A stretch of 64,000 nucleotides of DNA from Candidatus Thorarchaeota archaeon (GCA_048884965.1 JBHLQH010000019.1:314-64313); one strand, 5' to 3'. Positions 9,428-34,209 are shown, numbered from the stretch's first letter. Notes: generated by a model not told the origin, from the letters alone. Program-made: numbers and translations.

Positions 9428-9460
9428 AGAATTGCATTTGGACCAATTAATTACAAGAAT

Positions 9461-9499
9461 ATCAAAAAAGAGGAGGACAGCCCTTTTGAAGGACTGTCC
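9461..9499. terminator. Putative bidirectional terminator (hairpin flanked by an oligo-T tract on each strand)
   Basis: This is the only convergent junction in the window with real spacing (79 nt). GGACAGCC (9475-9482) pairs with GG-A-CTGTCC (9491-9499). The loop contains TTTT (9484-9487) for the plus-strand gene. AAAAAA (9464-9469) provides a T6 tract for the minus-strand gene. Confidence 0.4.
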
Positions 9500-9506
9500 A
9501 AATCTT

Positions 9507-11340: not shown

Positions 11341-14300
11341 TTAGCAGACGCCAAACCTCCGTGTTCTTCCTTGAAGGAATTCTAGCATTCTTTCTAGATT
11401 CAGGTGAATGCTATCCAAGAATGCCATCATTGGTGTCTGAAGTTCTTGTGCCACTGGAGTTAGGTCTCCTGCCAGGAACATATCAGGACTTGTAGCTATA
11501 GCAGACGAGTTTACTACCCATTCGTAGGCGTAGAGATATCCCTTTAGTGCAGTAGCGATGATCTCCATCCTACCATTTCTGTTGGAATCGCCCAATCGAA
11601 TGTCAGAAATCTCTTCAGCAAGCTCACCACTGTTCCAGACCGCATCATATACATGATCGATTCTGTTCTTTGTCTGGTTCTGTTCAAAGACTGTCAAATT
11701 GTTGCCAGTTCCAGCAATGACCTCAAGCCAGCTATCGCCATCAGTGTTGCCCACTTGAACTGCTTTCGTTGTTTCTGCAGTAGGTAGGAGCTTTCTTGCA
11801 GCAATCGTTCCTCCTGCATCGCTCTCATAGATCTCGACTCCGTGAGCCAAGCCAACGAAGACTTCAAGGCGACCATCCATATCATTATCAGCGATATCAA
11901 GACAGAATGCGCCAGTTTGAGGCTGAATCTGTAGGTACTGGATATACTTGTTGTCCTCGTATGTGTCGTCGTCGATCTTAACCGGAGTTAGGAATCGAAT
12001 CCATCCATACTGATTTGCGAGATATGATCCTTGATAGTCATCATCGGTTCCAACTACAACAATGTCCTTCAACCCATCTCGGTTAATGTCGCCTGTTTGT
12101 ATCCCTCTGATGAAGGGATCACCTTGCTCCATTGTGATATATTTGTAGGCTGCGACCTGCGTGTAGTTGTTATCACCTAGATTCTCAATGACTGCTAGGA
12201 CATTTTGGGCTCCAACAATTATCTCTCCGAGACCGTCACCATCCAGATCCTTGTCTACTGCGAGAACATACGGCTGGGCAGGGAGCCATTCACCGACCTT
12301 TGTACCACCGTAGTCCTCCCAATACATTATGCTATCGAACCAGACGAGGTCATAGACATCATCCTCCACGTATTCGAAGATGTACACATGGAAGCCAGTA
12401 CAAACAATGATCTCCTGCTTTCCATCCTTGTCTTGATCGCCTATGATCATGTCACGGATGTTCATATATGCGGGATACTGTTCGTGCGTAAAGTAATGTT
12501 GTAGCCAGAAGTCAGGAGACCGCCAAGACCTTCTGTAGGTGTTGTTCGCAACTTGCTCGAAGGCAATGATGTTGTGATCGAAGGACCCTACAAAGACCTC
12601 AGGTATCTCGTCCTGATCAACATCACCGTATTCCAGAGCTCGGCTCCAATACTCGAATACAATCCAGTTGGTCCATGAGTCGAATGCCTCATAGCCCCAG
12701 TAACCACTGGATTGAGTTCTCTTGTCCACCTCGACCATGTGAATATACGGATATGTCGCACACAGGAACGTGTCATGATCGATCGTGCCATAGAATACAT
12801 CGATGTAATCCTCGTTCATACAGATTAGATCAACGATGCCATCAGCATTCATGTCGCGATATTGCGGGAAGTCATGTCCGTACAATGGATCTAACAGGGT
12901 TCCTGTAAAGTCAGGCTCGAACATGGACCTGGTCTTCAGCCATTCGGGATCCTGCGTTGTGCCCTTGTTACGCCAAAGGGTGAATCGACCGGTCTCGCAT
13001 TTGTATCCACCACCAGTGTAGTTCTCACTTGCATGTGGAACAAGAACATCATACCTTCCGTCGTAATCGAAGTCTCCAAAGGCGAGAGCACCGAAGACAG
13101 TTTCGTTCTTCCGGTCATCGTTAATCTCTTGGAAGATGGTCGAATCATAGCTAAAGTAGAAGCGAGAGCCGGAGAAGTAGTTTGTTTGCTCAAAGTAATA
13201 GAGATAGTCAGTGGAAATAGCTAGGTCCTTATCGCCGTCAAGATCCCAATCTACCATCGTTATTCGGGGTATGAAGTCTGTAGAAATAACAATCGGGGAC
13301 AAGTCAGGAAGATATCCAGTTCGTTCGGTCCAGTAGTCTGTCGCTGTCTGCTCAAAGTATCTCATGGAGAAGATATAGTCGGAATCCGGATCTAAGCCTG
13401 CTTCACATAGGATTATATCATCATCATAATCGCCATCTAAGTCACCCATTGAAATTGTAGAATACTCAAAGAACGAGTCCGTGCTTAGGGTACTATGTGA
13501 TACGAAATATCCAGATTGATATGACCAAACCGGAGCTTCGTTTGTACCTGTGTTTCTATAGTAGATTAACCTACTTGATGCCCCAGTGTTGACCGTAGCA
13601 ACGAGATCATATGCGGAGGTGCCATCGACATCTATCAAAGCATATGATTCGAACATGTTGAAAGTCGGTACATTGCTGGAAACCTGAGAGCCGCTGATAA
13701 GATACCCTTCTTCAGTCCAAGTAGGTACCATCCCCTTATCCTGTATCTGAACGATATCCCAAATGGAAACTCCGAGTGAGAACTTCGGTTGATCAGATTG
13801 ACTCTCCCAGATCATTGCTCCTTCTGCTGTATATGCCATCATTTCTCCATCAACTGTTCCTATGATGATCTTCATTTGATCGTCATCATATCCGGTCTTC
13901 ACGTATCCTGTTGATACAACAAGTGCAGTATCAATCGGACGAGCTGGTGTGCCAAACGCTGCATCGACACCATAGACAGCTCCACCCTTGACACCTATCT
14001 TCATGTATCTGTACTCGTCCCAACGGGCTGCCCTGAGTGCATTATCCACGTCAAGATAGATGAAGGATGCCCAACTCACAATCGGCCAGTTGTAGTAGTA
14101 AGACTGTGCATACTGAGGGCTGAGATCGATGGGTTGCCATGTTTCAAGGTCGTTTGAGATGTACAACTCCATATTCTCAAGGTCGACCTCCTGCTGAATG
14201 ATTAGTATCATATCATATTCATCAGTGGCATCTCCTCCGAGTTCCTCCCATTGACCGAAATCAACGACAGCCACTGCCATATCATTCAGTTGGACGGATG

Positions 14301-17214: not shown

Positions 17215-20200
17215 TTGGTATCACCCTCCTTCTTAGACTTGGTCTTTGATGATTTCGTCGTCTTCTTGGAGTCTGTGGCCTCCGTCTTATCGGCCTTCTT
17301 GGTCGTCTTCTTGGAGTCTGCCTTTGACTCCGTCTTGTCGCCGCTACGTAGAGACCCTACCTTCTTGACCGTGAACCGAAGGACCGGTGGTACGATTATC
17401 CCAGCGATGAACCCTGCACCACCAAGAATGGCTGCGAGCATCCAGAATGGATAGCCTTCTGTGATGGGGACAAGTGGGTTCTGGCCGAGGGCGACCTCCT
17501 CGTTGTCAGGTACACCATCGCCATCTGTGTCAGTCGAGGTAGGGTCAGTACCGTAGACCTTGACCTCGAGACCGTCGTCTAGCCCGTCTCCGTCTGAGTC
17601 AGGGTTGTCAAAGCCACCCGGTGCTGCGTTCCAGTGCCAGAGGCCAGAGGAGTCGTTTCCAATTGGCAGCGGGGTCATCCATGTCATTTCGAAATAGAAT
17701 TCTTCACCGTCTGATAGTCCGTCTCCATCAAAGTCGTACTCGAAGCCATCAGCGATACCATTGCCGTTCTCATCCCATTCCAATGGATTCAGGCCATAGA
17801 CGTATTCTAGGCCATCTGGGAGATAGTCGTCATCAGTATCACTATCGGTCACGTTCGTAGGATAGAGCGGCCACCAGGACTCGTTCGCCTGCGCGAGGAA
17901 GAACGGTGGCATCAATGCTTCCGGCGGCGTCGTGTTCGCGGATATCATTTCCCACGACTCGAGGGCATCACCCAGCTCATCACCGTCGGTGTCATTTGAC
18001 ATAGGGTTAGTATGAGTCACGAAGATCTCGTTGTAGTCGTTGATACGATCGTCATCCGAGTCTGCGTTATTCGGGTAGGTGCCATAGAAGAGCTCGAGAC
18101 CGTCATCAAGCCCGTCTCCATCTGTGTCATTCAGGACAGGACAGGAGCCGTAGCGGAGCACGATGGTCAGAGCCTCGTATGGGAAGGTGATGATACTTAC
18201 ATTCTCAAGGATCATCTCAGTTCCGTCAAGCAGAGTATCCCCATCAGTGTCATTGTTCAGGGGGTCCAGTGGTACGGGATCGTGACCAGGCCAGCCTAGG
18301 CCTAGGTAGATCTCCTGTGAATCAGTGAGACCATCTGCATCAGTATCCATGGTGATAGGTGAGGTACCATAGTCAAGAACCTCATCGCCGTCACTTAGGG
18401 GCAGGGTCATCGAACCGTTCTCGTTCGGGTAGTCGAGCGAATCGTGATCAGTATCCCAGTCGAGTGGGTCGCTATTGAACACGAGCAGCTCCTCACCGTC
18501 TCCGAGACGGTCGTTATCAGTATCCCATAGCCGCGGGTCGGTATGAGCGTAGAAAATCTCGTACCCGTCAGTAAGGTCGTCATGATCAGTATCTGCCTCC
18601 AGCGGGTCGGTCAGGTAGATTAGAATCTCCTCACCGTCAGTCAGCCCATCATAGTCAGAGTCTCGCACGAGTGGGTTACAGTAGAAGAAGAACAGCTCCT
18701 CGCCGTCCGTTAGCCCATCTCGATCTGTATCATTATTGAGCGGATTGGTGCCATAGAGGAAGTACTCATCACCATCAAGCACCATGTCCTCGTCACAATC
18801 TGGATTCCGCGGGTCTGTATCCAACATCCAATCCTCGTAGTCAGGTAGGTGGTCATTATCAGTATCGGGATTCTGCGCGTCGGTTCCAGAGCCTCCTGGA
18901 CCTATCTGCTCATACCCGTCCCTCAGACCATCAGAGTCTTGGTCACCGTTGGTGGGGTCCCACTGCGGGTCGCGAGCGAGCTCGTTACCATCAGTAAGAT
19001 AGAGATAGACTGCGCCCCATGCCGTGTCATTGTCTGTATCTGGATTGCAAGGATTAGTCTTGACCAGCTTGACCTCAGGATAGCCCTCAAGGTCAGGAAT
19101 GATGGCAATCTGTCCGAACACCTCGGTACCATCATGGAGGTCCCAGATGTAGTCATCAGTCGGAGCGAATGGGTCACCCCATCCACCTCCTTGATACAGC
19201 CATGCGACACAGTCCTCATCCGTATCCGCATCTAAGGGGTGAGTCCATCTGAAGTTGACATACTGATACATGGAAACCTCTGTTTCATTACAGTACTCCA
19301 CCCCGTTATCCCATTCTTCACCATCAAGCAAACCATCGTTATCCGTATCAGGGTTCAATGGATCAGTCCTATCATCATAGGACACGCCACCGATAATGAC
19401 AGACTCTACAGAGCCGTAAGTGCCCTTGGTGAGAGTCACGTCGTACACTGTATTGATCTCATACCAGTCGTAGAGCATATCCCCGTCGGTGTCGATAAGG
19501 AACGGAGAAGTATGGTAGACCTTGACCTCTTGATAGTCAGTCAGGTTGTCCCGATCGGTATCGTTCAGAAGCGGGTTGGTCTTGAAGGTCACGTGCTCCT
19601 CGTAGTCAGTTAGCAGGTCATCGTCTGAGTCGACCTTCCACGGAGCAGTGTTCAGCTCTATCTCAAGTTTATCATTAAGCCCGTCTCCGTCTGTGTCGGC
19701 GGACAGCGGGTCAAGGAATGTGCTGGAGTCAGCCAAGGTGTAGCCAGGCAAGGACCCGTAGAGGAGGGACATGCGGGTCTCAAAGTCGTCGGGGAGACCA
19801 TCCTCATCTGTGTCTGTGAGGTCAGCGGCTTCTTCGCCATAGGAGCTGGAGCCCCATGAAGCAGAGATGTCGATGGTAGTCGTCCACGGTCCTCCGAAAT
19901 GCGTTCCGAAGGATGTGAAGAAGAGGTCGATGCCAAAGTAAAGGGAACAGTAGAGAGTGATGTAGATGCCAATGGTTGACGTCGCTATATCACTCAATGT
20001 ATGTATGATGACCGGGTCGGGGTCCGCCGCTAACGCCATGAGCGGTTCCCCTGCTAGTATCCCGGATCTCATTTCGAAGCGGAGGCCTACCTTGAAGGTC
20101 CCTTCGAATATCACGATAAGAAGGCGGATGTGTAGAGTCACACCTATGATGATGTCAAGCAAGAGGGTAGAAAGGGATGGAAGGCCCTGTCCTTGGTATT

Positions 20201-21956
20201 TCTTACTGATCTCGAATACGATGGATAATGTAAGGGTGATAGAGATTGATAGGAGCTCTGAGAACCACTCCATGATAGTCGAGATGACACCAGCTCCACC
20301 AGGTGAGAGGAAAGCCGATATGCTTAGGGAGAACGAAGCATCCAGCTCGAATCTGAGACCCCATTCACGTACATCAATGAATGCTCTATCAGTATTGGAT
20401 GCATCCATAGGTGGAAAGGCAAGCTTTAGCCAAGCATGTCCAAAGAACTCGATAGTGAACTGACCCATGAGACCTTGTACCCAGTCGTTCCCGGTTGGGA
20501 GGAAGGCACAGACACCAAGGTCGATCTCCATCACAGGGATGATGTCTATGAACTTACGAATCTCAGTGAACTGCTCCTCAACGTCACCGAACTCGGACAT
20601 GTTCTTTCCTCCGAGTACTGCTTGATTCATAAAGCTCTCAAAGGGAGTCTTGTCTATCTCAAAGTCAGGTAGGAGCTTGATCCGAAGAACTGCGCCAAAG
20701 CTCGCAAAGTCAGAGCCCAGATTGATAGGAGTTCCCAATCTGAATAGGAATACTGGAACCAGCCCTGTCAGTTTGTCTTGGACAGGAGTATTGATGATCC
20801 AGTCGAAGAACTCGCCAATATACTCATCCACCTCATACCACGCATCGAGGATAAGCTGGTCAACCATGGACCAGAGATCGAACATCTGTCTGGGTAAGAG
20901 CTGTGGCATCCATGTTGCGAAATCATGGTTGGTGATGTTGAAGCCCTCATCAATGAACCATTCCTTAATCTGGTCCCGAGCGTCCTCGATGGCACCCTGC
21001 ATGTAATCATTCAGGTCCTCTGCTGCATCGATATGAATAGCTAGGTTTTGAAGTCCTAGGTCGATCATACTATATAACACGGTATCTATCAGCCATCCCA
21101 TGGGTCCTCCGACACCGCTGGTCGGTGCCATCTCACGTAGGCCGATGTAATCCTCACTCTGAGCGGGAATTCCCAGACGCATGATAGGCATTAGCTCCTC
21201 GCCCTTGTCATCGTATTGCTTCTCTTCGATGACCCATGATTCGGTGAGGGCGGGATCAGTGATTGGGTCTGGAATATGTTCGCCTGTGTATTCTTCAGGA
21301 ACGACTCCTTTTGCCATATACTCATTGATGTTATCAGAGAAATCTCTCAACACCGTCTCACGAAGGCATTCTCCTTTTGCAGCCCACGTTGGCTCGTCAG
21401 AAAGTGCCATTGTGTCAGCTACTTCCCAAAGTGCATACAAGCGCCCAAGTCGCACATCGATGACCTCGGAATCATCGACATGAAGGTTGGCAGGTTCACC
21501 AAGGTAGTCCTTAATGATGAAGGCGCTTCCAACGCCGAAGATATGCTCGATCCTTGGAAAGTCAGCTAAGGTTTCAGCAACAACTTTCCACGATGTGATT
21601 TCCTCTCTGAACATGAGACCGGCTTGGCAGCTTTGGAAATAGTAGATGGCATAGTCTGGGCGATACCTATCAAGTTCAGCTTCTAGTTGTAATATAGATG
21701 AAACATCAAAGGAATCAACAAGGATGCCGTTCTGGAGAAGAGGGTTCATCGAATCCAACAGCATCGCTCTTGCTTCCAGACACTCCTTGTCATAATAGAT
21801 ATGTATCAGAGCTGGAGTTGCCTTTGCGACCTGAGGTTCAACGACTTCCGGAATGGAAGCAGCTGAAACAGGGAACATCAATGATGAGCTTACAAGCATC
21901 ATCACGGTAATAATGACGACTACCTTGCGGAGTCCAACCTTCATATTCATAGACAT
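17211..21956 (-). CDS. Giant secreted, C-terminally anchored protein with a long array of thrombospondin-type-3-like Ca-binding repeats
   Basis: 1581-aa ORF. GGAGG lies 9 nt upstream of ATG 21956. The signal-like N-terminus is MSMNMKVGLRKVVVIITVMMLVSSSLMFPVSA. More than 25 D.D.D.L.D..E motifs (DTDGDGLNDKLE, DTDNDGLLDGEE, DSDGDGLDDGLE) occupy aa ~700-1505. The TM is FWMLAAILGGAGFIAGIIVPPVL, followed by a Lys/Ser/Thr-rich tail. Confidence 0.85.
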   Translation of the reverse strand: MSMNMKVGLRKVVVIITVMMLVSSSLMFPVSAASIPEVVEPQVAKATPALIHIYYDKECLEARAMLLDSMNPLLQNGILVDSFDVSSILQLEAELDRYRPDYAIYYFQSCQAGLMFREEITSWKVVAETLADFPRIEHIFGVGSAFIIKDYLGEPANLHVDDSEVIDVRLGRLYALWEVADTMALSDEPTWAAKGECLRETVLRDFSDNINEYMAKGVVPEEYTGEHIPDPITDPALTESWVIEEKQYDDKGEELMPIMRLGIPAQSEDYIGLREMAPTSGVGGPMGWLIDTVLYSMIDLGLQNLAIHIDAAEDLNDYMQGAIEDARDQIKEWFIDEGFNITNHDFATWMPQLLPRQMFDLWSMVDQLILDAWYEVDEYIGEFFDWIINTPVQDKLTGLVPVFLFRLGTPINLGSDFASFGAVLRIKLLPDFEIDKTPFESFMNQAVLGGKNMSEFGDVEEQFTEIRKFIDIIPVMEIDLGVCAFLPTGNDWVQGLMGQFTIEFFGHAWLKLAFPPMDASNTDRAFIDVREWGLRFELDASFSLSISAFLSPGGAGVISTIMEWFSELLSISITLTLSIVFEISKKYQGQGLPSLSTLLLDIIIGVTLHIRLLIVIFEGTFKVGLRFEMRSGILAGEPLMALAADPDPVIIHTLSDIATSTIGIYITLYCSLYFGIDLFFTSFGTHFGGPWTTTIDISASWGSSSYGEEAADLTDTDEDGLPDDFETRMSLLYGSLPGYTLADSSTFLDPLSADTDGDGLNDKLEIELNTAPWKVDSDDDLLTDYEEHVTFKTNPLLNDTDRDNLTDYQEVKVYHTSPFLIDTDGDMLYDWYEINTVYDVTLTKGTYGSVESVIIGGVSYDDRTDPLNPDTDNDGLLDGEEWDNGVEYCNETEVSMYQYVNFRWTHPLDADTDEDCVAWLYQGGGWGDPFAPTDDYIWDLHDGTEVFGQIAIIPDLEGYPEVKLVKTNPCNPDTDNDTAWGAVYLYLTDGNELARDPQWDPTNGDQDSDGLRDGYEQIGPGGSGTDAQNPDTDNDHLPDYEDWMLDTDPRNPDCDEDMVLDGDEYFLYGTNPLNNDTDRDGLTDGEELFFFYCNPLVRDSDYDGLTDGEEILIYLTDPLEADTDHDDLTDGYEIFYAHTDPRLWDTDNDRLGDGEELLVFNSDPLDWDTDHDSLDYPNENGSMTLPLSDGDEVLDYGTSPITMDTDADGLTDSQEIYLGLGWPGHDPVPLDPLNNDTDGDTLLDGTEMILENVSIITFPYEALTIVLRYGSCPVLNDTDGDGLDDGLELFYGTYPNNADSDDDRINDYNEIFVTHTNPMSNDTDGDELGDALESWEMISANTTPPEALMPPFFLAQANESWWPLYPTNVTDSDTDDDYLPDGLEYVYGLNPLEWDENGNGIADGFEYDFDGDGLSDGEEFYFEMTWMTPLPIGNDSSGLWHWNAAPGGFDNPDSDGDGLDDGLEVKVYGTDPTSTDTDGDGVPDNEEVALGQNPLVPITEGYPFWMLAAILGGAGFIAGIIVPPVLRFTVKKVGSLRSGDKTESKADSKKTTKKADKTEATDSKKTTKSSKTKSKKEGDTK

Positions 21957-24623: not shown

Positions 24624-25262
24624 AAGATGGCAAATGACAGTCCCGACATGGGACAAATCCTTGACAAGGCCGAGAACCTGATGAGCAATTCAAAATTCAG
24701 TGATGCTATAGAGGCATTGGAAAAGGCCGTTTCAATTGATCCAAACAATCGTATAGTTTGGGATAACGTTATTATTTGCAATCTAGAGCTCAAACGTCCA
24801 AAGAAAGCTCTAGAGGCAATGAACTCGATTTTGAATATCGACCCCACTGCATACCAAGTGTGGGCTGATAAGGCATACCTCCATTTCTTGCTGCAGGAGG
24901 ATGGTGAAGGTGTTGAAGCACTTCGCAATAGTCTCAAATTGAACCCAAGGAACTACCGAGATTGGTTTTTACTTGGATCAGTGTTCATGTCTAATGAACG
25001 ATGGGATGACGCACGAGATGCATTTCACAACGCATTACAACTTAATCCAACGGATTCAGCTGTATGGTACAATCTTGCTGCAGTCAACTACATGATAGGT
25101 GACTTTGGAGCGGCTCTTGGAGCTGCTGAACAAGCAACCTCTATTGACCCGACCATGGACCTTTCAGAGGATGAATGGCTTGAAGAACTCAAGGATACCT
25201 TTGAACCTTTCACTGATAGCGATGATGATGATTTGATGTTTGACTTGGCAGCAGGAAGCTAG
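24624..25262 (+). CDS. TPR-repeat protein with an acidic C-terminus
   Basis: The ORF track starts at TTG 24618, and ATG 24624 is in frame. Repeated TPR signatures are present (AIEALEKAVSIDPNN, ALEAMNSILNIDPTAYQVWADKAY, ALRNSLKLNPRNYRDWFLLG, AFHNALQLNPTDSAVWYNLA, AAEQATSIDP). Confidence 0.8.
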   Translation, partial: KMANDSPDMGQILDKAENLMSNSKFSDAIEALEKAVSIDPNNRIVWDNVIICNLELKRPKKALEAMNSILNIDPTAYQVWADKAYLHFLLQEDGEGVEALRNSLKLNPRNYRDWFLLGSVFMSNERWDDARDAFHNALQLNPTDSAVWYNLAAVNYMIGDFGAALGAAEQATSIDPTMDLSEDEWLEELKDTFEPFTDSDDDDLMFDLAAGS

Positions 25263-27304
25263 ACTTCCTTCTTCTTGGTCCTACGTCTCTTTTTCTTAGG
25301 CGGTACCTCAGAGACGGGCTCTTCGATTTTTGCATCCTCAGAAGCTTGATTTTTTGATTCCTCGGGAGCTTGATTCGAAGCTTCGACGGGAGCTTCCTTT
25401 TTCCCAGAGTCGCTCCCTTCAACACCCTTCAGAATAGCCAGTTCCTTTGATAGGCTTTGAATCTCGTCCTTCATCTTATGATATTGTGCAGCTTGTAATG
25501 CCTGTTCTATTGCCTCTGTAAGCTGCTTCGTTTCTCTCTGGAACTCTGCGATATTCTGAGGATTGGTTGTTTGTTCTTTTCGTTTCGTCAAAACACCTAG
25601 TAAACCTTTGATTGCAGAAGATGTTTCATCTTTCGTTAACACGACTTCTTGCGGCTCAGTTGTTGAAACACTCAAGATACGACCGATTTGATCCTTCAGA
25701 TGAACAAACTCATTCAATGCCAAAGCAAGAATCTCAACGACTTCTGCATCCTCTTCAGCGTCATCTATGCTTTTTTCCAATTTGGTAATTGCGTTGGTAA
25801 GAAATCCTTCTCGTTCTTGCAGTGATGATCGTTTCCTTTCAAGCCAACGCCACTCGCTTCTCACATTTTGAGTAAGGGTAAGTGCTTCTGTTATCTTCTC
25901 TTGGTATAGCTCGAACTTCTCCTGTGCTTCATGCCATTCTTGCTCAAGATTATCAGTAGCATGAGAAAGCTGATAGCTAAGGATGTGACCAGCTTGTGCT
26001 TCAGCTAATACACGACTCTCTTTGATGGCACGGGATGCTGCATTCCATATCCGCTCCAGCTCTACCTCATCCTTGCTTGATCTGCCCTCTCTATCAAACT
26101 CGTCTGAAATGACCATTATTTCCTTTGTAAGGTCTTCAATCTCTGATATTTTCGCACGGAGGAGTGAAAGTCCTAGTCTATCGTTCAACTCATTGGTCAA
26201 AGCCTCACGTTCAGAAGGCACTTCCAACAGAGCATGGGTATTATCAATCAAGAGTTGGAGTGCGTGCTCGTAGTCAGCCACGGCTTCATGATACTCAGCG
26301 TTCTGTATCTTGGCATCTCCCTGTTTTTGAAGATCTAAGACAGACTCAAGAACGTCATATGGAGATGTCTTTAGAAGACCAGGAGCATAGAGCATACCGT
26401 CCTCGGCGGATAAATCCAATGGTTGTTGGCTTAGGGTTATGGATACGATTAGAATCTTATCCGGAGTTGCCAAGAAGATATGTTGCTTATCTACTCGAAC
26501 ATGGAAAATCTTCGTGCCCTCAAGCTTGATTGTACCTATTCCAACTCCTTTCCTGAGATCCCAGATGGAAACTCTAGCAGTATTTGAGGATACCACGAGG
26601 TAGAGATCATTAGCCCACATCGAACCAATTACATTGCTTTCTAGAGCGGGTAAGGACTTGATCTGTGACCAATCTACACGATCCCATAACTTGATGTCAG
26701 CAGTAGTCAAGCCAGTAATTATGAAATGACTATTCCCAACTACCTTTGTACCCTTGTCTTTTTTCTCCAGGCGCTTGATTTCAGTGGGAGCTCCTTCACT
26801 TTCTAATTTCCAGACTACAGCTTCATCCTTGCTGGTTGATGTACAGATTATCTCCCCATCGCCCCAAAGATTGTTGATATCTGCCTTGAAAAGCTGCCAG
26901 CTTGAAGTATCATGCGATTCCTTCTTAATCGATACTAAGCGACCCTCCTTAGCGCCAACGTACAGCGAATCACCACGAAGTGTAGAGGTCACAGCAGAAT
27001 AGCTGAGTTCAAACCATCCAATCATACCCCATGAGTTCTTGTTCCAGACATAGACTCGCTTTTCACAAGTTGCGTAAACTTGATTATCATCAACATGAAC
27101 AGCCAGAGGAGGAGAACTGGTTTCACCTAGTTCAGCAACTAGTTGCCAGTCATCTCTTGACCAGACCCGTACCTTCATGTCATCGCACGCGGCATAAACG
27201 TATTTATCGTCGACATTTAGATAGACAGCGTCGCCCTCAAGTTGAGCTTCAACATGATGTTGCAGACGCGGTGAGGCCGCGTTACCTCCCGCTGATTTAG
27301 CCAT
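25259..27304 (-). CDS. WD40-like beta-propeller + long coiled coil + basic C-terminal tail
   Basis: 681-aa ORF. The N-terminal ~300 aa carry repeated blade-end motifs (VRVWSRDDW, VYVWNKNSW, AVVWKLES, IKLWDRVDW, VSIWDLRKG). Residues ~330-640 are heptad-rich and charged. The protein ends PPKKKRRRTKKKEV. Confidence 0.75.
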   Translation of the reverse strand: MAKSAGGNAASPRLQHHVEAQLEGDAVYLNVDDKYVYAACDDMKVRVWSRDDWQLVAELGETSSPPLAVHVDDNQVYATCEKRVYVWNKNSWGMIGWFELSYSAVTSTLRGDSLYVGAKEGRLVSIKKESHDTSSWQLFKADINNLWGDGEIICTSTSKDEAVVWKLESEGAPTEIKRLEKKDKGTKVVGNSHFIITGLTTADIKLWDRVDWSQIKSLPALESNVIGSMWANDLYLVVSSNTARVSIWDLRKGVGIGTIKLEGTKIFHVRVDKQHIFLATPDKILIVSITLSQQPLDLSAEDGMLYAPGLLKTSPYDVLESVLDLQKQGDAKIQNAEYHEAVADYEHALQLLIDNTHALLEVPSEREALTNELNDRLGLSLLRAKISEIEDLTKEIMVISDEFDREGRSSKDEVELERIWNAASRAIKESRVLAEAQAGHILSYQLSHATDNLEQEWHEAQEKFELYQEKITEALTLTQNVRSEWRWLERKRSSLQEREGFLTNAITKLEKSIDDAEEDAEVVEILALALNEFVHLKDQIGRILSVSTTEPQEVVLTKDETSSAIKGLLGVLTKRKEQTTNPQNIAEFQRETKQLTEAIEQALQAAQYHKMKDEIQSLSKELAILKGVEGSDSGKKEAPVEASNQAPEESKNQASEDAKIEEPVSEVPPKKKRRRTKKKEV

Positions 27305-27519
27305 AATATTCAGTCCCTACAAGTACCTTGAACGCTATTAAGTGAGTTTCGTTTCACAAATGATGTTTTAAGACTTTATTCAACCGTGCAAGTATCTTCT
27401 TTTGCCTTAAAAATGCCTAATTACTGAGGCTCAGACAGGTGATAAAGAATTAAAGGAATAAACACAGAACACACTTAAGACATACATCGTCTCAAGTAAC
27501 GCCTATTGGAGGTAGCTCA
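27305..27519. promoter_or_regulatory. Divergent intergenic region that must carry the promoters of the WD40/coiled-coil gene and the FtsZ-like operon
   Basis: Inferred from gene geometry only: 215 nt of AT-rich sequence between divergent starts. TATA-like candidates include CTTAAAAAT (~27406) and, on the minus strand, CTTAATAG (~27333-27340). GGAGG lies 7 nt before TTG 27520. Confidence 0.35.
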
Positions 27520-30207
27520 TTGGACACTAACAAGTGGAGACGAGAACTTGACAGAGTCTCGGAAATGAAAGGAATGCTGGTATCACTCAATCCCAGCCTT
27601 GAGGAACAGACAGGCCACCAAATTCGCCAGCTCTATGATGTCTTTGCAAGTCTTTCGAAGACAGACAACGAGCTGGGCACAGCTGGATTCATGGCAAAAC
27701 GGAAGTTTCAAACTCAACGTGATAAAATAGACAATGACCTCGAAGATATGTTCATGAGGATTGTACGTGAGTTCGCCGAGCTGTTTCGAAGAGAACATAG
27801 AGACATCATGGGATTGCTCCCAAAGCTGCAAGAGATGAAACCTGCAGAAGCGAAGGGCATCGCCTCAATCAGCCTTCCATCTGTAGGTGCAGGAGATATG
27901 GCAGATTTCGAAAGGCTCTACGAATTTGGAGAGGTTTTCTCCAAGAAATGCATTACGCTCAAGAATGATATGTCCAGAGAAGTCAAAGACCTCCTTGATG
28001 AGAACAATAGAACTGTTGAAACCTTTGAGCGGCATATCACTATTGACAGGGGAGAAGTTGCGACCAGCGTTTCTAATGAGGATGTTATTGGTCTATCTGT
28101 TACAGACCTCATCACTATGAATGATAAGCTCAAAGCAGAGAAGATCTATCTAGATGGCCGCAGAGGCGAAGTAGGCCGCATGCTTGGTGTTTCACTCATT
28201 GGTGATATAGAATCGCTTCAGGCATGGGTCGAAACATCTACTCGACTCGGGTTGGATTTGCCAATGGACTTCTCTCAGAAGCTAAGGATTCTAGCGAGAG
28301 AGGCATCAGGTGCTGAGAACCTTACAACCCTAATCAGTCTTGAGAGCCAAATGCATGCTTCAAGACTCCAGCTCGCAAATATGTTGAAGGATCGAATCAT
28401 CAACATGAAGCACGAAGTAACTACCAAGTTTGTTCAAGCTGGAATACCAACGACCGCGGATATTATTCCACAGGCACCTTCAATGGTAGTCGAGAATCAG
28501 GAAGTTCCAAGTCTATTATCATCATACCAGAAGATGGTAGAATGGGAAGGTCAAGTAAAGATATCCCTCAAAGACAAGATAGAGGAACTCCTTGACGATG
28601 TAGAGAAGGCCACCGATCAACCAGAGGATACAGGTATCGCAGATGTTGTCGCAACGAGGGAATTTGTCGCTGAGTCAAATAAAGCACTCAAGAAAGGCGA
28701 GCTCGATAAAATGATCGATATCTATCAGAAAGCCTCTGCAATGTCGGAAGACCACAAGAAGCACGTGAAGGACCTAATCAGATCATACCTCACACGTTTC
28801 AATGAGCTAGCTACTTCTGCTGACAGAGTGCTTGATTACGCCCAGCTAAGCAAGAAGGCTCCCAAAGTCGAGGAGCTAGAGGGTGGCATTGTCTTTCACA
28901 TACAGTCACTTGAGAACCTGAGGAATGCTGTCGAGAGCGGCGTTGCCACTTTTCGAGATGCATGCCAACAGGAGATCGAAGCAATCATTCAGGATTTGCA
29001 AACCATAAAGCCAGCCTACGCAGAGATATTCATGCCTATCATTACAGAACTTGACGAAGGAGAGGTACGAATCAGGCGGCTCAATGAATTCGCAGAGATT
29101 CGCTCAGAGATGCGTACAATAAAGGAAACCATCCTAGCAAAGGCAAAGGAATCGCTTGAGAACCTCAGATACAGATTGGGTGTCAAGATCCGACTTGCCG
29201 CAGCCAAGCTAATGGGAGCTGGCGTTGAGATACCAATTGAGGTGCAGGATGCCATAAGTGAACTGAACAGCATCGGAGTGGCTGCTGAAACGGTGTTTAG
29301 CCTTCCGCAACAAGCCAGAAAGATGATCGAGCTCTATGAGAAGAAGATCACTGGAAACGTACTCGAATCCCTCAAAGAGGAAGCTACAGCCCTTCAGGAT
29401 TCGTTCACCAAGGCAGCTTCAATCGGCGTACCATTAGGTGAGGAACTCACCATTCTAATGAACATCATTGACACACCACCTACGGAGCTAGAAGAAGCAG
29501 CTGACGCCTTTGACAGACTAGCGGGTCTCACTACATCCAAGGATATACAGAAGCGTGTGAGGGAACGCGGAAATGATGCCTATCGCCAGATCAATGGTGC
29601 AATATCAATCTTCGAGGAACAAGGTATGCCTGATTTCGTTAAGAGACTGAAGGCATTACTTAACCAAGTCCCTCAGAAGATGCAGGCAGAGTCCAAGTAC
29701 ATCACTGAACCCCTTGAGGTCTGTTTGACTCTAGCTAATGTTCAAGATGAGATGCTCGGAGTCATGAAGAGCATCGCAGCGAAGGACAAAGAGGCACATG
29801 AGAAGGAGATTCGCGAAAGAAGTAACTATTACTCAACAATCGAGCGCGTCTATGAGAATCATCCCAAGGACTTCAGCAAGTTAATCTATCCTGTCGATAG
29901 GATGATCCAGATAGAGAAAGACCTAGAATTTGCTGATCAACTCGATAAGGCACTTGATTACTTCAATGAACTCAGAACACTGAGAACCGAGTGGGTTGAC
30001 AAAGCAGAGAAGATGGATGACTGGCACAAGTCAATGAAGATGTTCCTGACAGGATATAGTCCAACAGCTAGCATCGATGAAAGAGAGAAGTTCATGGATG
30101 ATGCGATCAGGAAGATTAGAGAAACCTATAGTAGGGAAGACATAAGCTCATATCTAGCCTGGGCCATCAGAGAGATTGCTCACTCAATGGCAAAAGGAAG
30201 AAAATAA
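27520..30207 (+). CDS. Large all-helical protein of unknown family, first gene of the FtsZ/tubulin-like operon (TTG start)
   Basis: 895-aa ORF. GGAGG lies 7 nt upstream. The composition is charged and helix-prone throughout, with no TM segment or signal and no recognisable catalytic motif. A G(I/V/M/L)..(I/L)P-type motif recurs 5 times. Confidence 0.8.
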   Translation: MDTNKWRRELDRVSEMKGMLVSLNPSLEEQTGHQIRQLYDVFASLSKTDNELGTAGFMAKRKFQTQRDKIDNDLEDMFMRIVREFAELFRREHRDIMGLLPKLQEMKPAEAKGIASISLPSVGAGDMADFERLYEFGEVFSKKCITLKNDMSREVKDLLDENNRTVETFERHITIDRGEVATSVSNEDVIGLSVTDLITMNDKLKAEKIYLDGRRGEVGRMLGVSLIGDIESLQAWVETSTRLGLDLPMDFSQKLRILAREASGAENLTTLISLESQMHASRLQLANMLKDRIINMKHEVTTKFVQAGIPTTADIIPQAPSMVVENQEVPSLLSSYQKMVEWEGQVKISLKDKIEELLDDVEKATDQPEDTGIADVVATREFVAESNKALKKGELDKMIDIYQKASAMSEDHKKHVKDLIRSYLTRFNELATSADRVLDYAQLSKKAPKVEELEGGIVFHIQSLENLRNAVESGVATFRDACQQEIEAIIQDLQTIKPAYAEIFMPIITELDEGEVRIRRLNEFAEIRSEMRTIKETILAKAKESLENLRYRLGVKIRLAAAKLMGAGVEIPIEVQDAISELNSIGVAAETVFSLPQQARKMIELYEKKITGNVLESLKEEATALQDSFTKAASIGVPLGEELTILMNIIDTPPTELEEAADAFDRLAGLTTSKDIQKRVRERGNDAYRQINGAISIFEEQGMPDFVKRLKALLNQVPQKMQAESKYITEPLEVCLTLANVQDEMLGVMKSIAAKDKEAHEKEIRERSNYYSTIERVYENHPKDFSKLIYPVDRMIQIEKDLEFADQLDKALDYFNELRTLRTEWVDKAEKMDDWHKSMKMFLTGYSPTASIDEREKFMDDAIRKIRETYSREDISSYLAWAIREIAHSMAKGRK

Positions 30208-30225
30208 TCTAAGGAGATAGAAACA

Positions 30226-31620
30226 ATGTCAAATGGTGTTACAAGACTCGGAGAAGACGAAACCAAAGCAGCCGAGGTCTTCGCAATTGGTGTGGGAGAG
30301 TGTGGTTCCAATATCGTTGGCTCATACCTTAAAGCAAGCAAAGACAGGCGACTCCCATCAAGAGTCCGAGGATATCTCCTTATGAACACAGACAGAGCAG
30401 ACCTGACTAAGGTTCGTTCAAAATATGAGATTCCAAAGGAACACACCATGCTCTACGGTGCAAGTGAGATTGGTGTGGGTGGTCGTTTCATGGATGGCTA
30501 TAACGCTATCATAGAATCGAAGGATATCATCTTCGATCAACTAGGAGATCTTGGCTTTGAAGGTGTTTCAGGTTTCTGTATCTTCACCAGCCTCGGCGGT
30601 GGTACAGGTTGTGGCGGAACACCTGCTATCATCGAGCTACTCAAGCAAAGATTCCAAGAAGAGGAAGGACGACGTATCTTTGTGTATGTCATCGGAATCC
30701 TACCCTTCGAAGGACAGTCCAGTGAAGCCCTCAACAGTATATGGGCAGTATCACGATTGCTTCGTGCCCAGCTGCAGGAGAGAGGAGCTGATCTTACAAT
30801 TCTACTTAGCAACAGAACCATGCTAAAGCGTATTCTGCAATCGAGAAGAGCTGATAGCGTTGACTACCTCCAGAGAGAGTTAGAGGTTGACATCGCGGAT
30901 ATCGACTCTATTGAAACAATGGTACCATCAACACTAGATGAGGGTGGAGAGTTAGAAGCTAGAACTGAACAAGCATTCGTCGAGCTCGTTAACCCACTCG
31001 CACTTGACGTCGTTGAAGCTATGCTTTCACCAGGAGTATATGAACCCAACAAGGATGTCTTCCCGACCACAGACCTTGCAGACTATGCGCGCAAGCTTGA
31101 TCCAGTGGTCGTTCCAGCACTCTACCAAGATATCGGATTAATTCCTGACGCAGGTAGTATGCCAAAGCAATTGAAGACTATGATTGATTATGCAGTCAGG
31201 GAATGCAGCTATGCTGATGTCGGTGATGAGCCAAATGCTGAATCTGTCTACTATGTGTTCTCAGGACCTAGGCATATCAGCAAGGCAGAATATGGTATGC
31301 ATCTCAAAGAAGCGCTTGACAAGTTCATCGCTCCTGGAGCAGCAATCACTCCTTGCTATGTGCAGAGACATACCAAGGATCCCAAGACCGACTTACTTCT
31401 CCTGCTAGGTTTGCCAAAGATACCTGAGCTTGTGCAAATCATAAACGAAGCCACGCAACTCGTCAATCTACACAGTGGTGCTTCACCACTCAAGCAAAGC
31501 TGGTTCATGCGATCAAAGGGTGTCCAACGCAAGGAACTCGTTGACGCGATTGCGGACTTCCGAGAGCTATTCAGCTACTATATGACACCAGGATCTGGAG
31601 ATATGCAACAGGGCGTGTGA
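30226..31620 (+). CDS. FtsZ/tubulin-superfamily GTPase, divergent
   Basis: AAGGAG lies ~10 nt upstream. The ordered motifs are AIGVGECGSNIV (T1), MNTDRADL, GVGGRFMDG (T3-like), SLGGGTGCGGTPAI (T4, tubulin signature), LPFEGQSS (T5), LLSNRTML (T6) and TTDLADY (T7-like). A C-terminal domain of FtsZ-like layout follows (VYYVFSGPRHIS..LLLLLGLP). Confidence 0.8.
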   Translation: MSNGVTRLGEDETKAAEVFAIGVGECGSNIVGSYLKASKDRRLPSRVRGYLLMNTDRADLTKVRSKYEIPKEHTMLYGASEIGVGGRFMDGYNAIIESKDIIFDQLGDLGFEGVSGFCIFTSLGGGTGCGGTPAIIELLKQRFQEEEGRRIFVYVIGILPFEGQSSEALNSIWAVSRLLRAQLQERGADLTILLSNRTMLKRILQSRRADSVDYLQRELEVDIADIDSIETMVPSTLDEGGELEARTEQAFVELVNPLALDVVEAMLSPGVYEPNKDVFPTTDLADYARKLDPVVVPALYQDIGLIPDAGSMPKQLKTMIDYAVRECSYADVGDEPNAESVYYVFSGPRHISKAEYGMHLKEALDKFIAPGAAITPCYVQRHTKDPKTDLLLLLGLPKIPELVQIINEATQLVNLHSGASPLKQSWFMRSKGVQRKELVDAIADFRELFSYYMTPGSGDMQQGV

Positions 31621-31624
31621 AACC

Positions 31625-32698
31625 GTGTCTGACTCATTCAAGACTGAAGACCTCGTCGATAGGCTTCTACTCGTAGTTACCCTCAACTCTACACTGATTC
31701 ATTTTCTGATCAGCTCGCAGGTTGAAGGCTATGTGGACCCTGATAGGGTAGATTCTCTAACACAAGGACTGATCAAGACAAGGTCTTGGATCGAGGAAGC
31801 GACTACCTCGGAAACCATCCCTGCATCGACTTCAAACATCCTTAGCCTCATCGTCAAGAGGTTGACCCAGATTGAAAGCATCCTCCCCAAGCTTTCAGAG
31901 AAGGCAAAACAAGCTGAACAAGGAAAGACTCCAGCTGCAGAAATTCTATCACTTCTTGAAGGAAGTGGACCACAGCGAGAAAGCCAAATAACTGGCGATC
32001 AAAGAATTGTCCCAGTCGTTGGCGAAGAAGGAACAATTGTTCCATTGGTTTCGGATCAGCCAGAGGTCCCACGAGAGCCCTACAAAAGAGTCGAGATGGA
32101 AAACGATGAGTGGGGCATCATAGGGCAGACCCAGATGCTCATCCAGCAGTACAGCAAACGCTGTCATGTTCTACTACCTACCTTTTGGATGGAAGCTCTA
32201 CGAGAGCTCCATAAATATCAATCACAATCACAGTATCTCGGAGACACTATTGAGATACCAGCACGTATCTTGGCCAAGATCGTCAAAGGACTCCTAACTG
32301 AGGCACCAGGTGCACGATTGCTACAGGACCTCTCAAAGAAAAGGCCTCAGGAGAACTATCTGGACCCATCAGAGTCTGAACGTATCAACAGAGCGGTTTC
32401 TAAGTACTTCCAAGGTCTTGAAGGTGTTTTGACCGAGAATATGCCTTCCCCGAAAGACAAGATAATGGAAGCACAAAATGCTTTTGACGGATTTGGATGG
32501 GGTGGTCCAGAACTTGAAAAGCGGTTGATAAAACGTATAAATCAGCAATGTGAGGAAGCCATGCAGAGCGCTGAAGCGACGACCGATGTAGCCAGAGCAG
32601 CTGTCTATGCAGAAACTACGAAACTACTCTGCAAGCTGCAGCATGCCATTCTAGCTGAACCGAGACTACGTGAGATTCTAGCTGAAATGAAGCCATAG
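31625..32698 (+). CDS. Helical protein of unknown family, third gene of the FtsZ/tubulin-like operon (GTG start)
   Basis: 357-aa ORF starting 4 nt after the FtsZ-like stop. No TM segment and no recognised motif. The central linker is Pro/Glu-rich (VPVVGEEGTIVPLVSDQPEVPREPY). Confidence 0.65.
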   Translation: MSDSFKTEDLVDRLLLVVTLNSTLIHFLISSQVEGYVDPDRVDSLTQGLIKTRSWIEEATTSETIPASTSNILSLIVKRLTQIESILPKLSEKAKQAEQGKTPAAEILSLLEGSGPQRESQITGDQRIVPVVGEEGTIVPLVSDQPEVPREPYKRVEMENDEWGIIGQTQMLIQQYSKRCHVLLPTFWMEALRELHKYQSQSQYLGDTIEIPARILAKIVKGLLTEAPGARLLQDLSKKRPQENYLDPSESERINRAVSKYFQGLEGVLTENMPSPKDKIMEAQNAFDGFGWGGPELEKRLIKRINQQCEEAMQSAEATTDVARAAVYAETTKLLCKLQHAILAEPRLREILAEMKP

Positions 32699-32802
32699 TA
32701 GACAGTATTGCTCGCATGCCTCCATGTCTGATTCAGATGCGTATCTCATATAAGGGATGATTTTCTTCACTCGGTAAAGCCTACGATAATCGAGGGAACG
32801 AG

Positions 32803-34209
32803 ATGAAAGGTCTTGACACTATGCTTAACCCAAAGGTCACTGCTGTGGTGGGTGTTTCCACATCGAACCCCTTCTCACCGGGTAATGTGATCTTCAGAAA
32901 ACTGTGCTTCGAGAATTCCTTGCCAACATATCCCATCAATCCACGTGGTGGTACAGTCGAAGGACAACATGTCTACAAATCACTAATCGAAGCTCCTAAT
33001 GATATCGAGATGGTCGTCATCTCCGTTCCAGCGAAATATGTTCCAAGTGTTCTAGAAGAGTGTGGTCAGAAAAAGATAAAATCTGTTATAGTCGTTTCAG
33101 GTGGCTTTAGCGAAACCGGAGAGTCAGGTGCAAGTCTGCAGGAGGAGATTATCCAAATATGCAAGACATATGGAATTTCCATGGTTGGACCGAACTGCAT
33201 TGGAGTGTTCGTTCCCGACCAGCTTGACACGTTCTTCCTTCCATCAGAACGTGTGGCTAGAACAAGAAAGGGATCGGTAGCCCTCATATCACAGAGTGGA
33301 GGGTGGTTGATTGAAAGACTTGAGGAGTTTGCCTCTCGAGATGTAGGCATTGCTGCGGCGATATCAATCGGGAATGCCGCACAGACAAAGGTCTATGATT
33401 TCATTGACCACTTTGGGCATGATAAGAATGTTTCAGCCATAGTCTGTTACATAGAAGGCTTCGGTGAAGATGAGGGACGCACATTTGTAGATGTCTGTGC
33501 ACGGGTTACAGAGAAGAAGCCAGTGATTGTACTAAAAGGAGGACAATCTGAAGCGGGTCATAGAGCGACTCAGAGTCACACCTCGTCACTTGCAGGAAGT
33601 ACCGTTGTTACCTCTGCAGCATTCAAGCAATTTGGCGTTATCGAAGCGGCTGACGAAGACGAAGTCATGGCTTACTCTAAGGTCTTCTCATTTCCATTCA
33701 GAACGATGGAAGGCAATAGAATAGGTTGCCTAACGGTAAGCGGCGGTCATGGCGTTATCGCTACAGATGAAGCTGAACAATACGGTCTTGAATTTCCACC
33801 CTTCTCTGAAGCAGATCAAACTGCAATGAGGGCGACTGTTACACCAGCCTATCAAGGGATTGCTTCCTTCCGTAACCCATGCGACCTGACAGGAAGTGCT
33901 TCAGATGTTGACTATGAGGGAGTGCTCCGAGTGATGTTGAATATCGACTACGTTGATGCTGCATTACTCCTACTATTACCGTACGCTCCAGGGATTTCTC
34001 TTCAAATTGGGGCTCGTGTCGCAAATGTTACAAAGACAAAGAACAAGACCGTTGTTGCCTATGTCCCAGATCTGGACAAGTACGAAGTTATAATCAGGGG
34101 CTTCGAGATAAATGGTATCCCCTGTGCAGATACAATTGAAGAAGCTGTGCAGATGATTAATGGGATTCACAAACGATCCGAGTACCTTCAACGAATCGGC
34201 AAACTCTAG
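32803..34209 (+). CDS. acdA: ADP-forming acetyl/acyl-CoA synthetase, alpha-type subunit (CoA-binding + succinyl-CoA-synthetase-like ligase domain)
   Basis: Motifs: VAVVGVS, YPINPRGG, VVISVPA, VVSGGFSETG, MVGPNCIGV, and ATQSHTSSLAG (phospho-His loop). No ATP-grasp beta subunit is adjacent. Confidence 0.75.
   Translation: MKGLDTMLNPKVTAVVGVSTSNPFSPGNVIFRKLCFENSLPTYPINPRGGTVEGQHVYKSLIEAPNDIEMVVISVPAKYVPSVLEECGQKKIKSVIVVSGGFSETGESGASLQEEIIQICKTYGISMVGPNCIGVFVPDQLDTFFLPSERVARTRKGSVALISQSGGWLIERLEEFASRDVGIAAAISIGNAAQTKVYDFIDHFGHDKNVSAIVCYIEGFGEDEGRTFVDVCARVTEKKPVIVLKGGQSEAGHRATQSHTSSLAGSTVVTSAAFKQFGVIEAADEDEVMAYSKVFSFPFRTMEGNRIGCLTVSGGHGVIATDEAEQYGLEFPPFSEADQTAMRATVTPAYQGIASFRNPCDLTGSASDVDYEGVLRVMLNIDYVDAALLLLLPYAPGISLQIGARVANVTKTKNKTVVAYVPDLDKYEVIIRGFEINGIPCADTIEEAVQMINGIHKRSEYLQRIGKL

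Follow-up and report, generated by a model that had tools for sequence, protein, structure and literature searches.

A three-gene module of Asgard archaea that combines a CetZ-related GTPase with two orphan, predicted helical proteins

Asgard archaea are the closest prokaryotic relatives of eukaryotes, and true tubulins are patchily distributed among them. In a stretch of DNA of 64,000 nucleotides (nt) from Candidatus Thorarchaeota archaeon (GCA_048884965.1 JBHLQH010000019.1:314-64313; the whole stretch is referred to below as the window, with positions counted from its first letter), three genes follow one another on the plus strand between positions 27520 and 32698: gene A, encoding a protein of 895 amino acids (aa), gene B, encoding a tubulin-superfamily GTPase of 464 aa, and gene C, encoding a protein of 357 aa. 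The original prediction, made from the sequence of the window, had singled out this block as an operon in which a GTPase is enclosed by two helical proteins. The analysis reported here places gene B in a CetZ-related clade of Asgard archaea that has already been named from phylogeny; what appears to be new is the invariant three-gene module, its breadth across the Asgard classes and the two partner families.

Layout and conservation of the three-gene locus

Gene A occupies positions 27520–30207 and starts with TTG, gene B positions 30226–31620 and starts with ATG, and gene C positions 31625–32698 and starts with GTG, all on the plus strand according to the open reading frame (ORF) scan. The stop codon of gene A (TAA, 30205–30207) is followed by an 18-nt spacer that holds a GGAG site at 30213–30216 ahead of the ATG of gene B at 30226, and the stop codon of gene B (TGA, 31618–31620) by a spacer of 4 nt ahead of the GTG of gene C at 31625. 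A GGAGG sequence that resembles a Shine-Dalgarno site can be read at 27508–27512 (plus strand), 7 nt upstream of the TTG of gene A. Direct reading of the junction between genes B and C finds no clear Shine-Dalgarno site ahead of the GTG of gene C which, together with the 4-nt spacer, makes translational coupling of the two genes likely. The block is preceded by a 215-nt gap (27305–27519), shared with a divergently transcribed gene, and followed by a gap of 104 nt (32699–32802). These elements of the layout, that is, the three same-strand ORFs with spacers of 18 and 4 nt, the separate GGAGG and GGAG sites of the first two genes and the gaps on either side, had all been put forward in the original prediction, and all are reproduced by the ORF scan, with exact coordinates, and by the reading of the sites and junctions. 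Each of the three genes has more than 150 homologues, so that these are real genes and not chance ORFs; the nearest relatives (85–98% identity) are labelled Thorarchaeota.

The 215-nt region upstream of gene A is poorly conserved across six aligned Thorarchaeota loci, except for the GGAGG site and the TTG start codon, which are invariant in the six, and a block of ~20 nt, AACACAGAACACACTTAAGAC, at 27460–27480 (plus strand). This block contains the core CAGAACACACTTAAGA (27465–27480, plus strand; ~40 nt upstream of the start of gene A), which occurs once in the window and is found, with no more than three mismatches, in the corresponding position of 24 or more Thorarchaeota loci; the block was not seen in the loci from other lineages. 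The TTG start is kept in the relatives along with the N-terminus of protein A. Judging from its position, the conserved element is a candidate for the core promoter (B recognition element/TATA-like) or an operator of the whole unit. Given one upstream element and a GGAGG site ahead of gene A, and internal spacers of only 18 and 4 nt, the three genes are probably transcribed together, probably from one promoter, as the single transcription unit that was proposed initially. Scans of the window for Rfam families and tRNAs gave no matches.

The conservation of the locus was surveyed in one genome per GTDB species, which yielded 119 relatives and 80 loci that were kept; together with nine loci of distant homologues, the set comprises 89 loci labelled as Thor-, Sif-, Borr-, Hermod- and Heimdall-/Hod-archaea and ‘Asgardarchaeia’, and hidden Markov models built from the cross-lineage alignments of A, B and C were run on all ORFs of these loci. 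In the 81 loci where more than 1 kb of sequence is available upstream of gene B, gene A is without exception its immediate upstream neighbour and has the same orientation (the other 8 loci are contig ends), and gene C lies directly downstream of gene B in 88 of the 88 testable loci; the sole apparent exception for gene C, locus L042, is an over-extended ORF call, and the gene is detected there by tblastn. The spacers within the triad are mostly between −8 and +30 nt, with several overlaps, and the orthologues measure 870–1396 aa (A), 437–479 aa (B) and 296–392 aa (C, with one of 602 aa). By comparison, the other neighbours of the triad in Heimdall loci are quite different from those in Thorarchaeota: the WD40/coiled-coil, tetratricopeptide repeat (TPR), coenzyme A (CoA) ligase-like and isoprenoid genes that surround the triad in the latter are not kept beyond this group, save for the CoA-ligase-like gene in the Borr- and Sif-archaea, the only neighbour besides A and C that is kept. 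The notion that A, B and C are mere neighbours with unrelated functions, which no positive evidence favours, is effectively refuted by this survey, because their order, strand and near-zero spacing are maintained in every testable locus despite entirely different surroundings; no testable locus shows the loss of synteny that would set the partners apart from the GTPase.

Within Thorarchaeota, the identity to the proteins of the window is 85–95% for B, 55–82% for A and 52–85% for C; it is 58–62%, 27–32% and 25–28%, respectively, in the Sif-, Borr- and Hermod-archaea, and 50–56%, 16–21% and 22–25% in the Heimdall loci and ‘Asgardarchaeia’. Because identity falls off in the order expected from vertical descent, the triad is most likely inherited vertically. 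Gene B is far more constrained than its partners, and the combination of a slowly evolving B with fast-evolving A and C is the pattern that would be expected of a polymer subunit accompanied by accessory proteins that evolve faster.

The setting of the locus is chromosomal: the genes around the triad have housekeeping roles (CoA ligase, isoprenoid and purine genes), synteny holds within classes, and no integrase or mobile-element genes were found in the neighbourhoods of the triad loci inspected. There were no relatives among 50,697 phage records and a single weak match, to a megaplasmid, among 72,556 plasmids. These observations bear on the possibility that the triad, as part of a mobile element or in the partitioning of the chromosome, segregates or positions DNA in the way of TubZRC/PhuZ, with A or C as the DNA adaptor. 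TubZRC and PhuZ are likewise tubulin-superfamily GTPases encoded in small dedicated operons with non-enzymatic partners, a layout that the triad resembles, and the basic-tailed coiled-coil WD40 protein encoded next to the triad in Thorarchaeota could in principle bind nucleic acid. However, A and C contain no helix-turn-helix or other DNA-binding domain and are both acidic (net charge of −31 for A), no repeats or centromere-like arrays were noted, and the divergence of the proteins tracks class-level taxonomy, all of which, along with the housekeeping setting and the near-complete lack of phage and plasmid relatives, makes such a role highly improbable.

Two individual loci deserve a comment. 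In locus L083 (‘Asgardarchaeia’), gene B (8001–9323) is called as an ORF of 389 aa and another of 42 aa and is devoid of the helices that are conserved at the C-terminus; the orthologue of C in this locus (9342–10232, 296 aa) has no N-terminal domain. Either the module is truly reduced here, or the cause is a frameshift or an assembly error. In the complete Thorarchaeota chromosome CP070658.1 (locus L014), only the C-terminal ~290 residues of A are detected upstream of the GTPase gene, at 7118–7981; gene A is complete in L013, a near-identical locus, and masking, an assembly error or a disruption could be the cause.

The GTPase and its two partner proteins

The product of gene B matches PF00091 with 71.6 bits (cut-off 33; E = 1.3e-19) over residues 17–201, which cover model positions 1–187 of 190 and delimit the N-terminal GTPase domain (30274–30828, plus strand). 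On the strength of this match and of the signature GGGTGCG at residues 124–130, the protein is assigned to the tubulin/FtsZ superfamily, which agrees with the FtsZ/tubulin-like GTPase predicted originally. In an alignment of 15 gene B homologues extending from Thorarchaeota to Heimdall (50–87% identity), the invariant residues include G22, G24, E25, G27 and N29 of the T1 loop GxGECGSN (residues 22–29), N54 and T55 of the T2 loop NTD (54–56), G83, G85 and G86 of the T3 loop GVGG (83–86), all positions from G124 to G131 of the T4 loop GGGTGCGG (124–131), where Cys replaces the Ser or Thr of GGGTG[ST]G, and N196 of T6. A variable insert of ~45 residues separates the GTPase domain from a conserved core helix (residues 248–266), and downstream of this helix lies the segment TTDLAD (31066–31083, plus strand; residues 281–286), with T282, D283 and D286 invariant. 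This segment fits the pattern [NT]xDxx[DE] of the T7 synergy loop, and in the published multiple alignment of Santana-Molina et al. (2023; PMC9871819), the tubulin H7/T7 stretch (GxLNxDLxx) aligns with it, off by one column. There are good grounds, though no proof, for regarding TTDLAD as a T7 loop, which in a protofilament would supply the missing part of the active site of the adjacent subunit. Conserved helices towards the C-terminus of B include W426-F427 and K431-G432.

The best relatives of B in the PDB are the CetZ proteins, namely, CetZ1/CetZ2 of Haloferax volcanii (4B46/4B45) and that of Methanosaeta (3ZID), with family-profile E-values from 8e-11 (for 4B46) to 2e-6, followed at ~1e-4 by OdinTubulin, Asgard AtubA, BtubA/B and eukaryotic tubulins, in the N-terminal domain only. 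B and CetZ are alike in their archaeal origin, the GGGTGxG signature, the FtsZ-like NTD in the T2 loop and, probably, a role outside division, but only the N-terminal ~160 residues are alike; when the C-terminal half of B was used as a profile, no tubulin, FtsZ or CetZ in the PDB was matched. CetZ genes are not known to be accompanied by genes A and C. Membership tests for other groups gave 34.1 bits against a cut-off of 295.2 for TIGR00065 (ftsZ), over residues 12–141 only, so that B is not an FtsZ equivalog, no FtsZ_C domain at E-values up to 1, no Pfam match to Tubulin_C (PF03953) and 17.8 bits, below the cut-off, for PF13809 (Tubulin_2). By these tests, B would be neither an FtsZ nor a canonical CetZ nor a tubulin of the eukaryotic type.

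Sequence comparison places B in Asg.Tub, a ‘novel CetZ-like group in Asgardarchaeota’ that was named by Santana-Molina et al. (PMC9871819) and built, according to their supplementary files, on four sequences (OLS26264.1, PWI48967.1, KXH77455.1 and OLS30664.1), because the full-length homologue P0114, 50% identical to the product of gene B at 97% coverage (E = 8.5e-144), is the listed member OLS26264.1. Another member, OLS30664.1, comes from Thorarchaeota AB_25, and the AB_25 contig is locus L046, with the full triad and a gene B that is 88% identical. In that study, the position of Asg.Tub is unstable between CetZ and tubulins, the indels are of the CetZ type and the C-termini of the clade match nothing, with which the profile result for B agrees; in published trees, Asg.Tub does not fall within CetZ but either branches between CetZ and tubulins or forms an associated clade. 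The authors, for whom the surroundings of CetZ-like groups consisted of ‘unknown and unrelated genes’, mostly coiled-coil, also saw coiled-coil genes of unknown function near members of this family, but their account is phylogenetic only, built on 4 sequences, and includes no invariant triad, partner families, folds, T7 conservation or breadth. A literature search by topic and by protein accession found, beyond this paper, just a mention in a 2026 preprint (10.64898/2026.02.15.705738), where Asg.Tub serves as outgroup, and no description of the conserved triad, of the partner families A and C or of what the GTPase clade does. The initial claim that the module matches no described system stands for the operon and the partners and needs correction for the GTPase, the clade of which already bears a name.

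AlphaFold2 (AF2) predicts that partner A is an elongated protein in which bundles of long helices follow one another: the model, derived from an alignment of 102 Thorarchaeota sequences, is all-alpha, with a mean predicted local distance difference test score (pLDDT) of 87.2 and ~33 helices, many of them 30–50 residues long, and its low predicted template modelling score (pTM, 0.41) is as expected for an elongated multi-bundle protein. The protein has no transmembrane (TM) segment (no 19-residue stretch exceeds 1.6 on the Kyte-Doolittle scale) and no Walker A motif. It aligns end to end across lineages, with fairly even conservation along its length and invariant residues here and there, such as W835-H836 and Y878-L879. 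All searches point to an orphan family: there is no match in the PDB for either the single sequence or the cross-lineage profile, nothing above threshold in Pfam, NCBIfam, PADLOC or PHROGs (sub-threshold SHE3 and other matches are coiled-coil noise), no Pfam family common to 17 orthologues beyond noise, including gamma-tubulin complex proteins (GCPs), spectrin, BAR, ESCRT and TPR, and no Foldseek match of the model in the PDB at E ≤0.001 (the best E-value is 0.54). Foldseek rows for the dynein tail, the gamma-tubulin ring complex (gamma-TuRC), PRC1 and vinculin (E >0.5) were rejected as generic helical-bundle matches. A was also rejected as a GCP, with neither GRIP1 nor GRIP2 (PF17681/PF04130) in 17 orthologues and gamma-TuRC Foldseek E-values of 1.4–4.2 at a TM-score of ~0.1. 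When seven segments of A were compared pairwise with hhalign, no internal repeats were found (all probabilities <10%), which rules out a recent spectrin-like repeat array, and hhalign finds A unrelated to C and to the neighbouring WD40/coiled-coil protein.

Some database labels attached to A homologues are misleading. A homologue from JGI that is 83% identical to A (P0123) is named ‘tryptophanyl-tRNA synthetase’, for which the sequence gives no support and which looks like an annotation error, and a few homologues carry a precomputed PF04513 assignment (baculovirus polyhedron envelope protein) that is probably coiled-coil noise.

Partner C is also acidic and predicted to be helical. The AF2 model consists of an N-terminal three-helix domain (residues 7–101, pLDDT ~66–79), a disordered, variable linker (residues 101–146, pLDDT <50) and a C-terminal all-alpha domain (residues ~150–357, pLDDT mostly >90) that ends in a conserved MKP tail; the cross-lineage alignment agrees with this division into a helical N-terminal part, a linker of low conservation and a conserved C-terminal domain of ~200 residues. 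Invariant across lineages are D161, Y176, P185, L224-x-E226-A227-P228, G293, E298, R300 and K356. No Walker A motif is present, and comparisons with Pfam, NCBIfam, PADLOC and PHROGs give nothing above threshold, those of 18 orthologues with Pfam give no family in common beyond noise and none of the GCP, spectrin, BAR, ESCRT or TPR families, those of the single sequence and the cross-lineage profile with the PDB give no matches, and those of the model with the PDB and BFVD by Foldseek give none at E ≤0.001. In a set of 1.84 billion representative proteins, the C profile retrieves 48 relatives, 45 of them at E ≤1e-10 and nearly all 290–420 aa long, so far as these searches go a tiny orphan family without informative fusions. 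The original prediction that both partners are helical is borne out by the AF2 models, and its failure to place either of them is repeated at the levels of sequence, profile and predicted fold, with no link to a characterized family emerging.

Scans for TM and amphipathic segments in the window proteins likewise confirm that neither partner has a TM segment, with the qualification that the first helix of C is borderline and was not called an anchor. The Kyte-Doolittle value of this helix (over 19 residues) is 1.59 in the window protein, within a range of 1.3–1.9 and reaching 1.8–1.9 in Heimdall, and a polar N-S-T core is conserved. Binding of C to a membrane is a possibility only.

A candidate filament system and its alternatives

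We infer, with moderate confidence, that the triad encodes a chromosomal, vertically inherited tubulin-superfamily filament with two dedicated accessory proteins, apart from the FtsZ divisome; both polymerization and the physical interaction of the three proteins are predictions. In the proposed mechanism, B would bind GTP and assemble head-to-tail into protofilaments in which the TTDLAD loop of one subunit activates hydrolysis in the next. B would be co-expressed with A and C, probably through one promoter and translational coupling; A, the helical-bundle chain of 870–1396 aa, would act as a filament-associated scaffold, bundler or spacer, and C, a bipartite protein of ~340 aa, as a tether or adaptor that would connect a target, for instance the membrane, with the filament or with A. 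Most Asgard archaea are reported to have FtsZ (FtsZ1/FtsZ2) and SepF as their division machinery (PMC10936438), which makes a role of the module outside division, in cell shape, protrusions or membrane organization, the more likely one.

The logic of such a system, a polymer combined with non-enzymatic tethers and bundlers, is that of FtsZ and its accessories (SepF, ZipA, FtsA, ZapA and EzrA). The layout of C, with an anchor-like domain, a long disordered linker and a globular domain, is like that of ZipA-type tethers, and A, as a chain of long-helix bundles, is like the EzrA/spectrin-like helical-bundle regulators. Nevertheless, B differs from FtsZ in the absence of FtsZ_C and in its TIGR00065 score (34 versus 295 bits), and neither the sequences nor the predicted folds of A and C match those of the accessories. 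BtubAB-BtubC, AtubAB(C) and OdinTubulin are also operon-encoded members of the tubulin superfamily, some of them from Asgard archaea, and BtubC is a helical (TPR) partner. In contrast to these systems, which give only weak profile matches (~1e-4), the module has a single GTPase gene instead of an A/B pair, no Tubulin_C, indels of the CetZ type and partners that are not TPR proteins, and, among Asgard archaea, the B family occurs far more broadly than do the Atub and Odin tubulins with their patchy distribution.

Several points weigh against a filament with accessory proteins. Sequence comparison does not connect the C-terminal half of B with any solved tubulin, FtsZ or CetZ structure, so that TTDLAD is identified as a T7 loop from its motif, its place in the sequence and a single published alignment with an offset of one column. 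Both AF2 models, for A and for C, were derived from Thorarchaeota sequences only (58–100% identity), and their helical packings could be over-confident. Finally, a tie of C to the membrane is tentative, with the first helix borderline and absent in the orthologues from loci L083 and L084.

The divergence of the C-terminal half of B from all polymerizing relatives is also one of the features that favour the main rival explanation, namely, that B, instead of polymerizing, is part of a stable hetero-oligomer together with A and C, in which GTP binding or hydrolysis serves as a switch or structural cofactor, like gamma-tubulin in GCP complexes or Misato, for example, nucleating or capping another filament or regulating a membrane process. 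Additional features compatible with this explanation are the obligate linkage to two helical proteins, with a coupling tight enough to suggest fixed stoichiometry, the extra variable insert of ~45 residues between the GTPase domain and H7, and the large helical-bundle architecture of A, for which the non-significant Foldseek list includes gamma-TuRC, the dynein tail and PRC1 (E ≥0.5, a hint only). On the other side, the T7-type acidic residues of B are invariant, and such residues are normally retained only where hydrolysis sits at a longitudinal subunit interface; the GRIP families of Pfam match 0 of 17 A orthologues and there is no significant fold match to GCPs; and the GTPase is very highly conserved over its entire surface, as suits a self-assembling polymer. 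A complex of this kind is accordingly regarded as rather unlikely, and the filament with accessory proteins is preferred.

A further variant of the filament hypothesis ties it to membrane remodelling or vesicle trafficking, as an accessory linked to Arf-family small GTPases, with B acting on membranes in the manner suggested for FtsZl-1, artubulin-Snf7 or the Halo_adaptin CetZ-like systems and not in shaping the cell. CetZ-like genes in adaptin/ESCRT-like clusters provide a precedent (PMC10936438), and FtsZl-1, artubulin-Snf7 and the Halo_adaptin CetZ-like proteins, as well as TubZRC/PhuZ, are also non-canonical tubulin-superfamily GTPases encoded in small clusters with dedicated partners. Arf/Ras-family genes are found less than 8 kb from the triad in Heimdall, LC_3 and ‘Asgardarchaeia’ loci, CDC48 is nearby in the Heimdall loci, the gene for the WD40 beta-propeller and coiled-coil protein divergently adjoins the triad in most Thorarchaeota loci, and the first helix of C is hydrophobic. 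Yet small GTPases are so abundant in Asgard archaea that their proximity may be due to chance, several of the Heimdall loci are not independent, and, unlike A and C, none of these neighbours is kept across classes. Moreover, the triad includes no ESCRT, adaptin or Snf7 domain and no TM segment or membrane protein, and has neither the DNA-binding adaptor nor the mobile context of the TubZRC/PhuZ systems. A dedicated function in trafficking thus appears improbable.

With respect to the filament with two accessory proteins, the findings would be of some consequence. A CetZ-related GTPase that is widespread and unusually conserved (50–62% identity between Thorarchaeota and Heimdall lineages) is accompanied by the same two partners at all testable loci; if B forms filaments, the module would be a major, so far uncharacterized part of the way in which Asgard cells are built, and its accessory proteins would represent new types. 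Its compactness, with three adjacent genes and no membrane proteins, makes it directly testable, and the triad opens a route, linked to function, into two orphan protein families. A bolder proposal, advanced here only tentatively and not considered probable, is that the triad is an ancient, previously unrecognized cytoskeletal machine specific to Asgard archaea, a third filament system beside Lokiactin and FtsZ/Atub that would have been present already in the Heimdall/Hod lineage from which eukaryotes arose, and in which A and C, as new folds (a giant helical-bundle scaffold and an adaptor tethered by a linker), would jointly organize the shape of the cell, its protrusions or its internal membranes. 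It is even conceivable that A is functionally a precursor or counterpart of the eukaryotic helical-bundle tubulin-binding proteins, similar to GCPs or microtubule-associated proteins.

Neighbouring genes and other features of the window

The divergently transcribed gene upstream of the triad (25259–27304, minus strand) encodes a 681-aa protein with a WD40 beta-propeller (residues ~26–290), a helical/coiled-coil region of ~350 residues and a very basic tail, PPKKKRRRTKKKEV. It adjoins the triad in most Thorarchaeota loci (42–68% identity), but not in L049, L052 and L056, and in none of the other lineages. Downstream, the triad is followed in Thorarchaeota (67–88% identity) by a gene with CoA-binding and Succ_CoA_lig domains that resembles ADP-forming acyl-CoA synthetases (32803–34209, plus strand, in the window); this gene also comes after the triad in the Borr- and Sif-archaea, with 31–34% identity (L062, L063, L065, L068 and L086). 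In Heimdall-type loci, a fourth gene on the same strand, which encodes a protein of 252–285 aa with no Pfam match, is found ~100–300 nt after the triad (10517–11347 in L081, 10543–11400 in L087 and 10779–11537 in L088).

The Arf/Ras-family genes located within 8 kb upstream of the triad lie at 102–1037 in L081, 4532–5113 in L083, 1–468 in L084, 1–724 in L087 and 749–1917 in L089. In L083, the gene is directly upstream of the triad on the same strand, and in L089, two such genes are arranged in tandem. These genes often occur together with CDC48 and a gene with a MoCF_biosynth domain, an association that could be due to chance.

Elsewhere in the window, two giant adjacent ORFs (11341–21956, minus strand) lie in the only GC-rich stretch (~52% GC, compared with ~44%). 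They encode proteins of 1957 aa, with NHL, FG-GAP and other beta-propeller repeats, and 1581 aa, with bacterial TSP3 repeats, which are probably large surface or adhesion proteins. A 1067-aa protein encoded at 3698–6901 (plus strand) consists nearly entirely of HEAT/Armadillo (ARM) repeats (HEAT_2, E = 8e-77) and shows a sub-threshold likeness to the N-terminal region of adaptins and to the ARM repeats of tubulin chaperone D.

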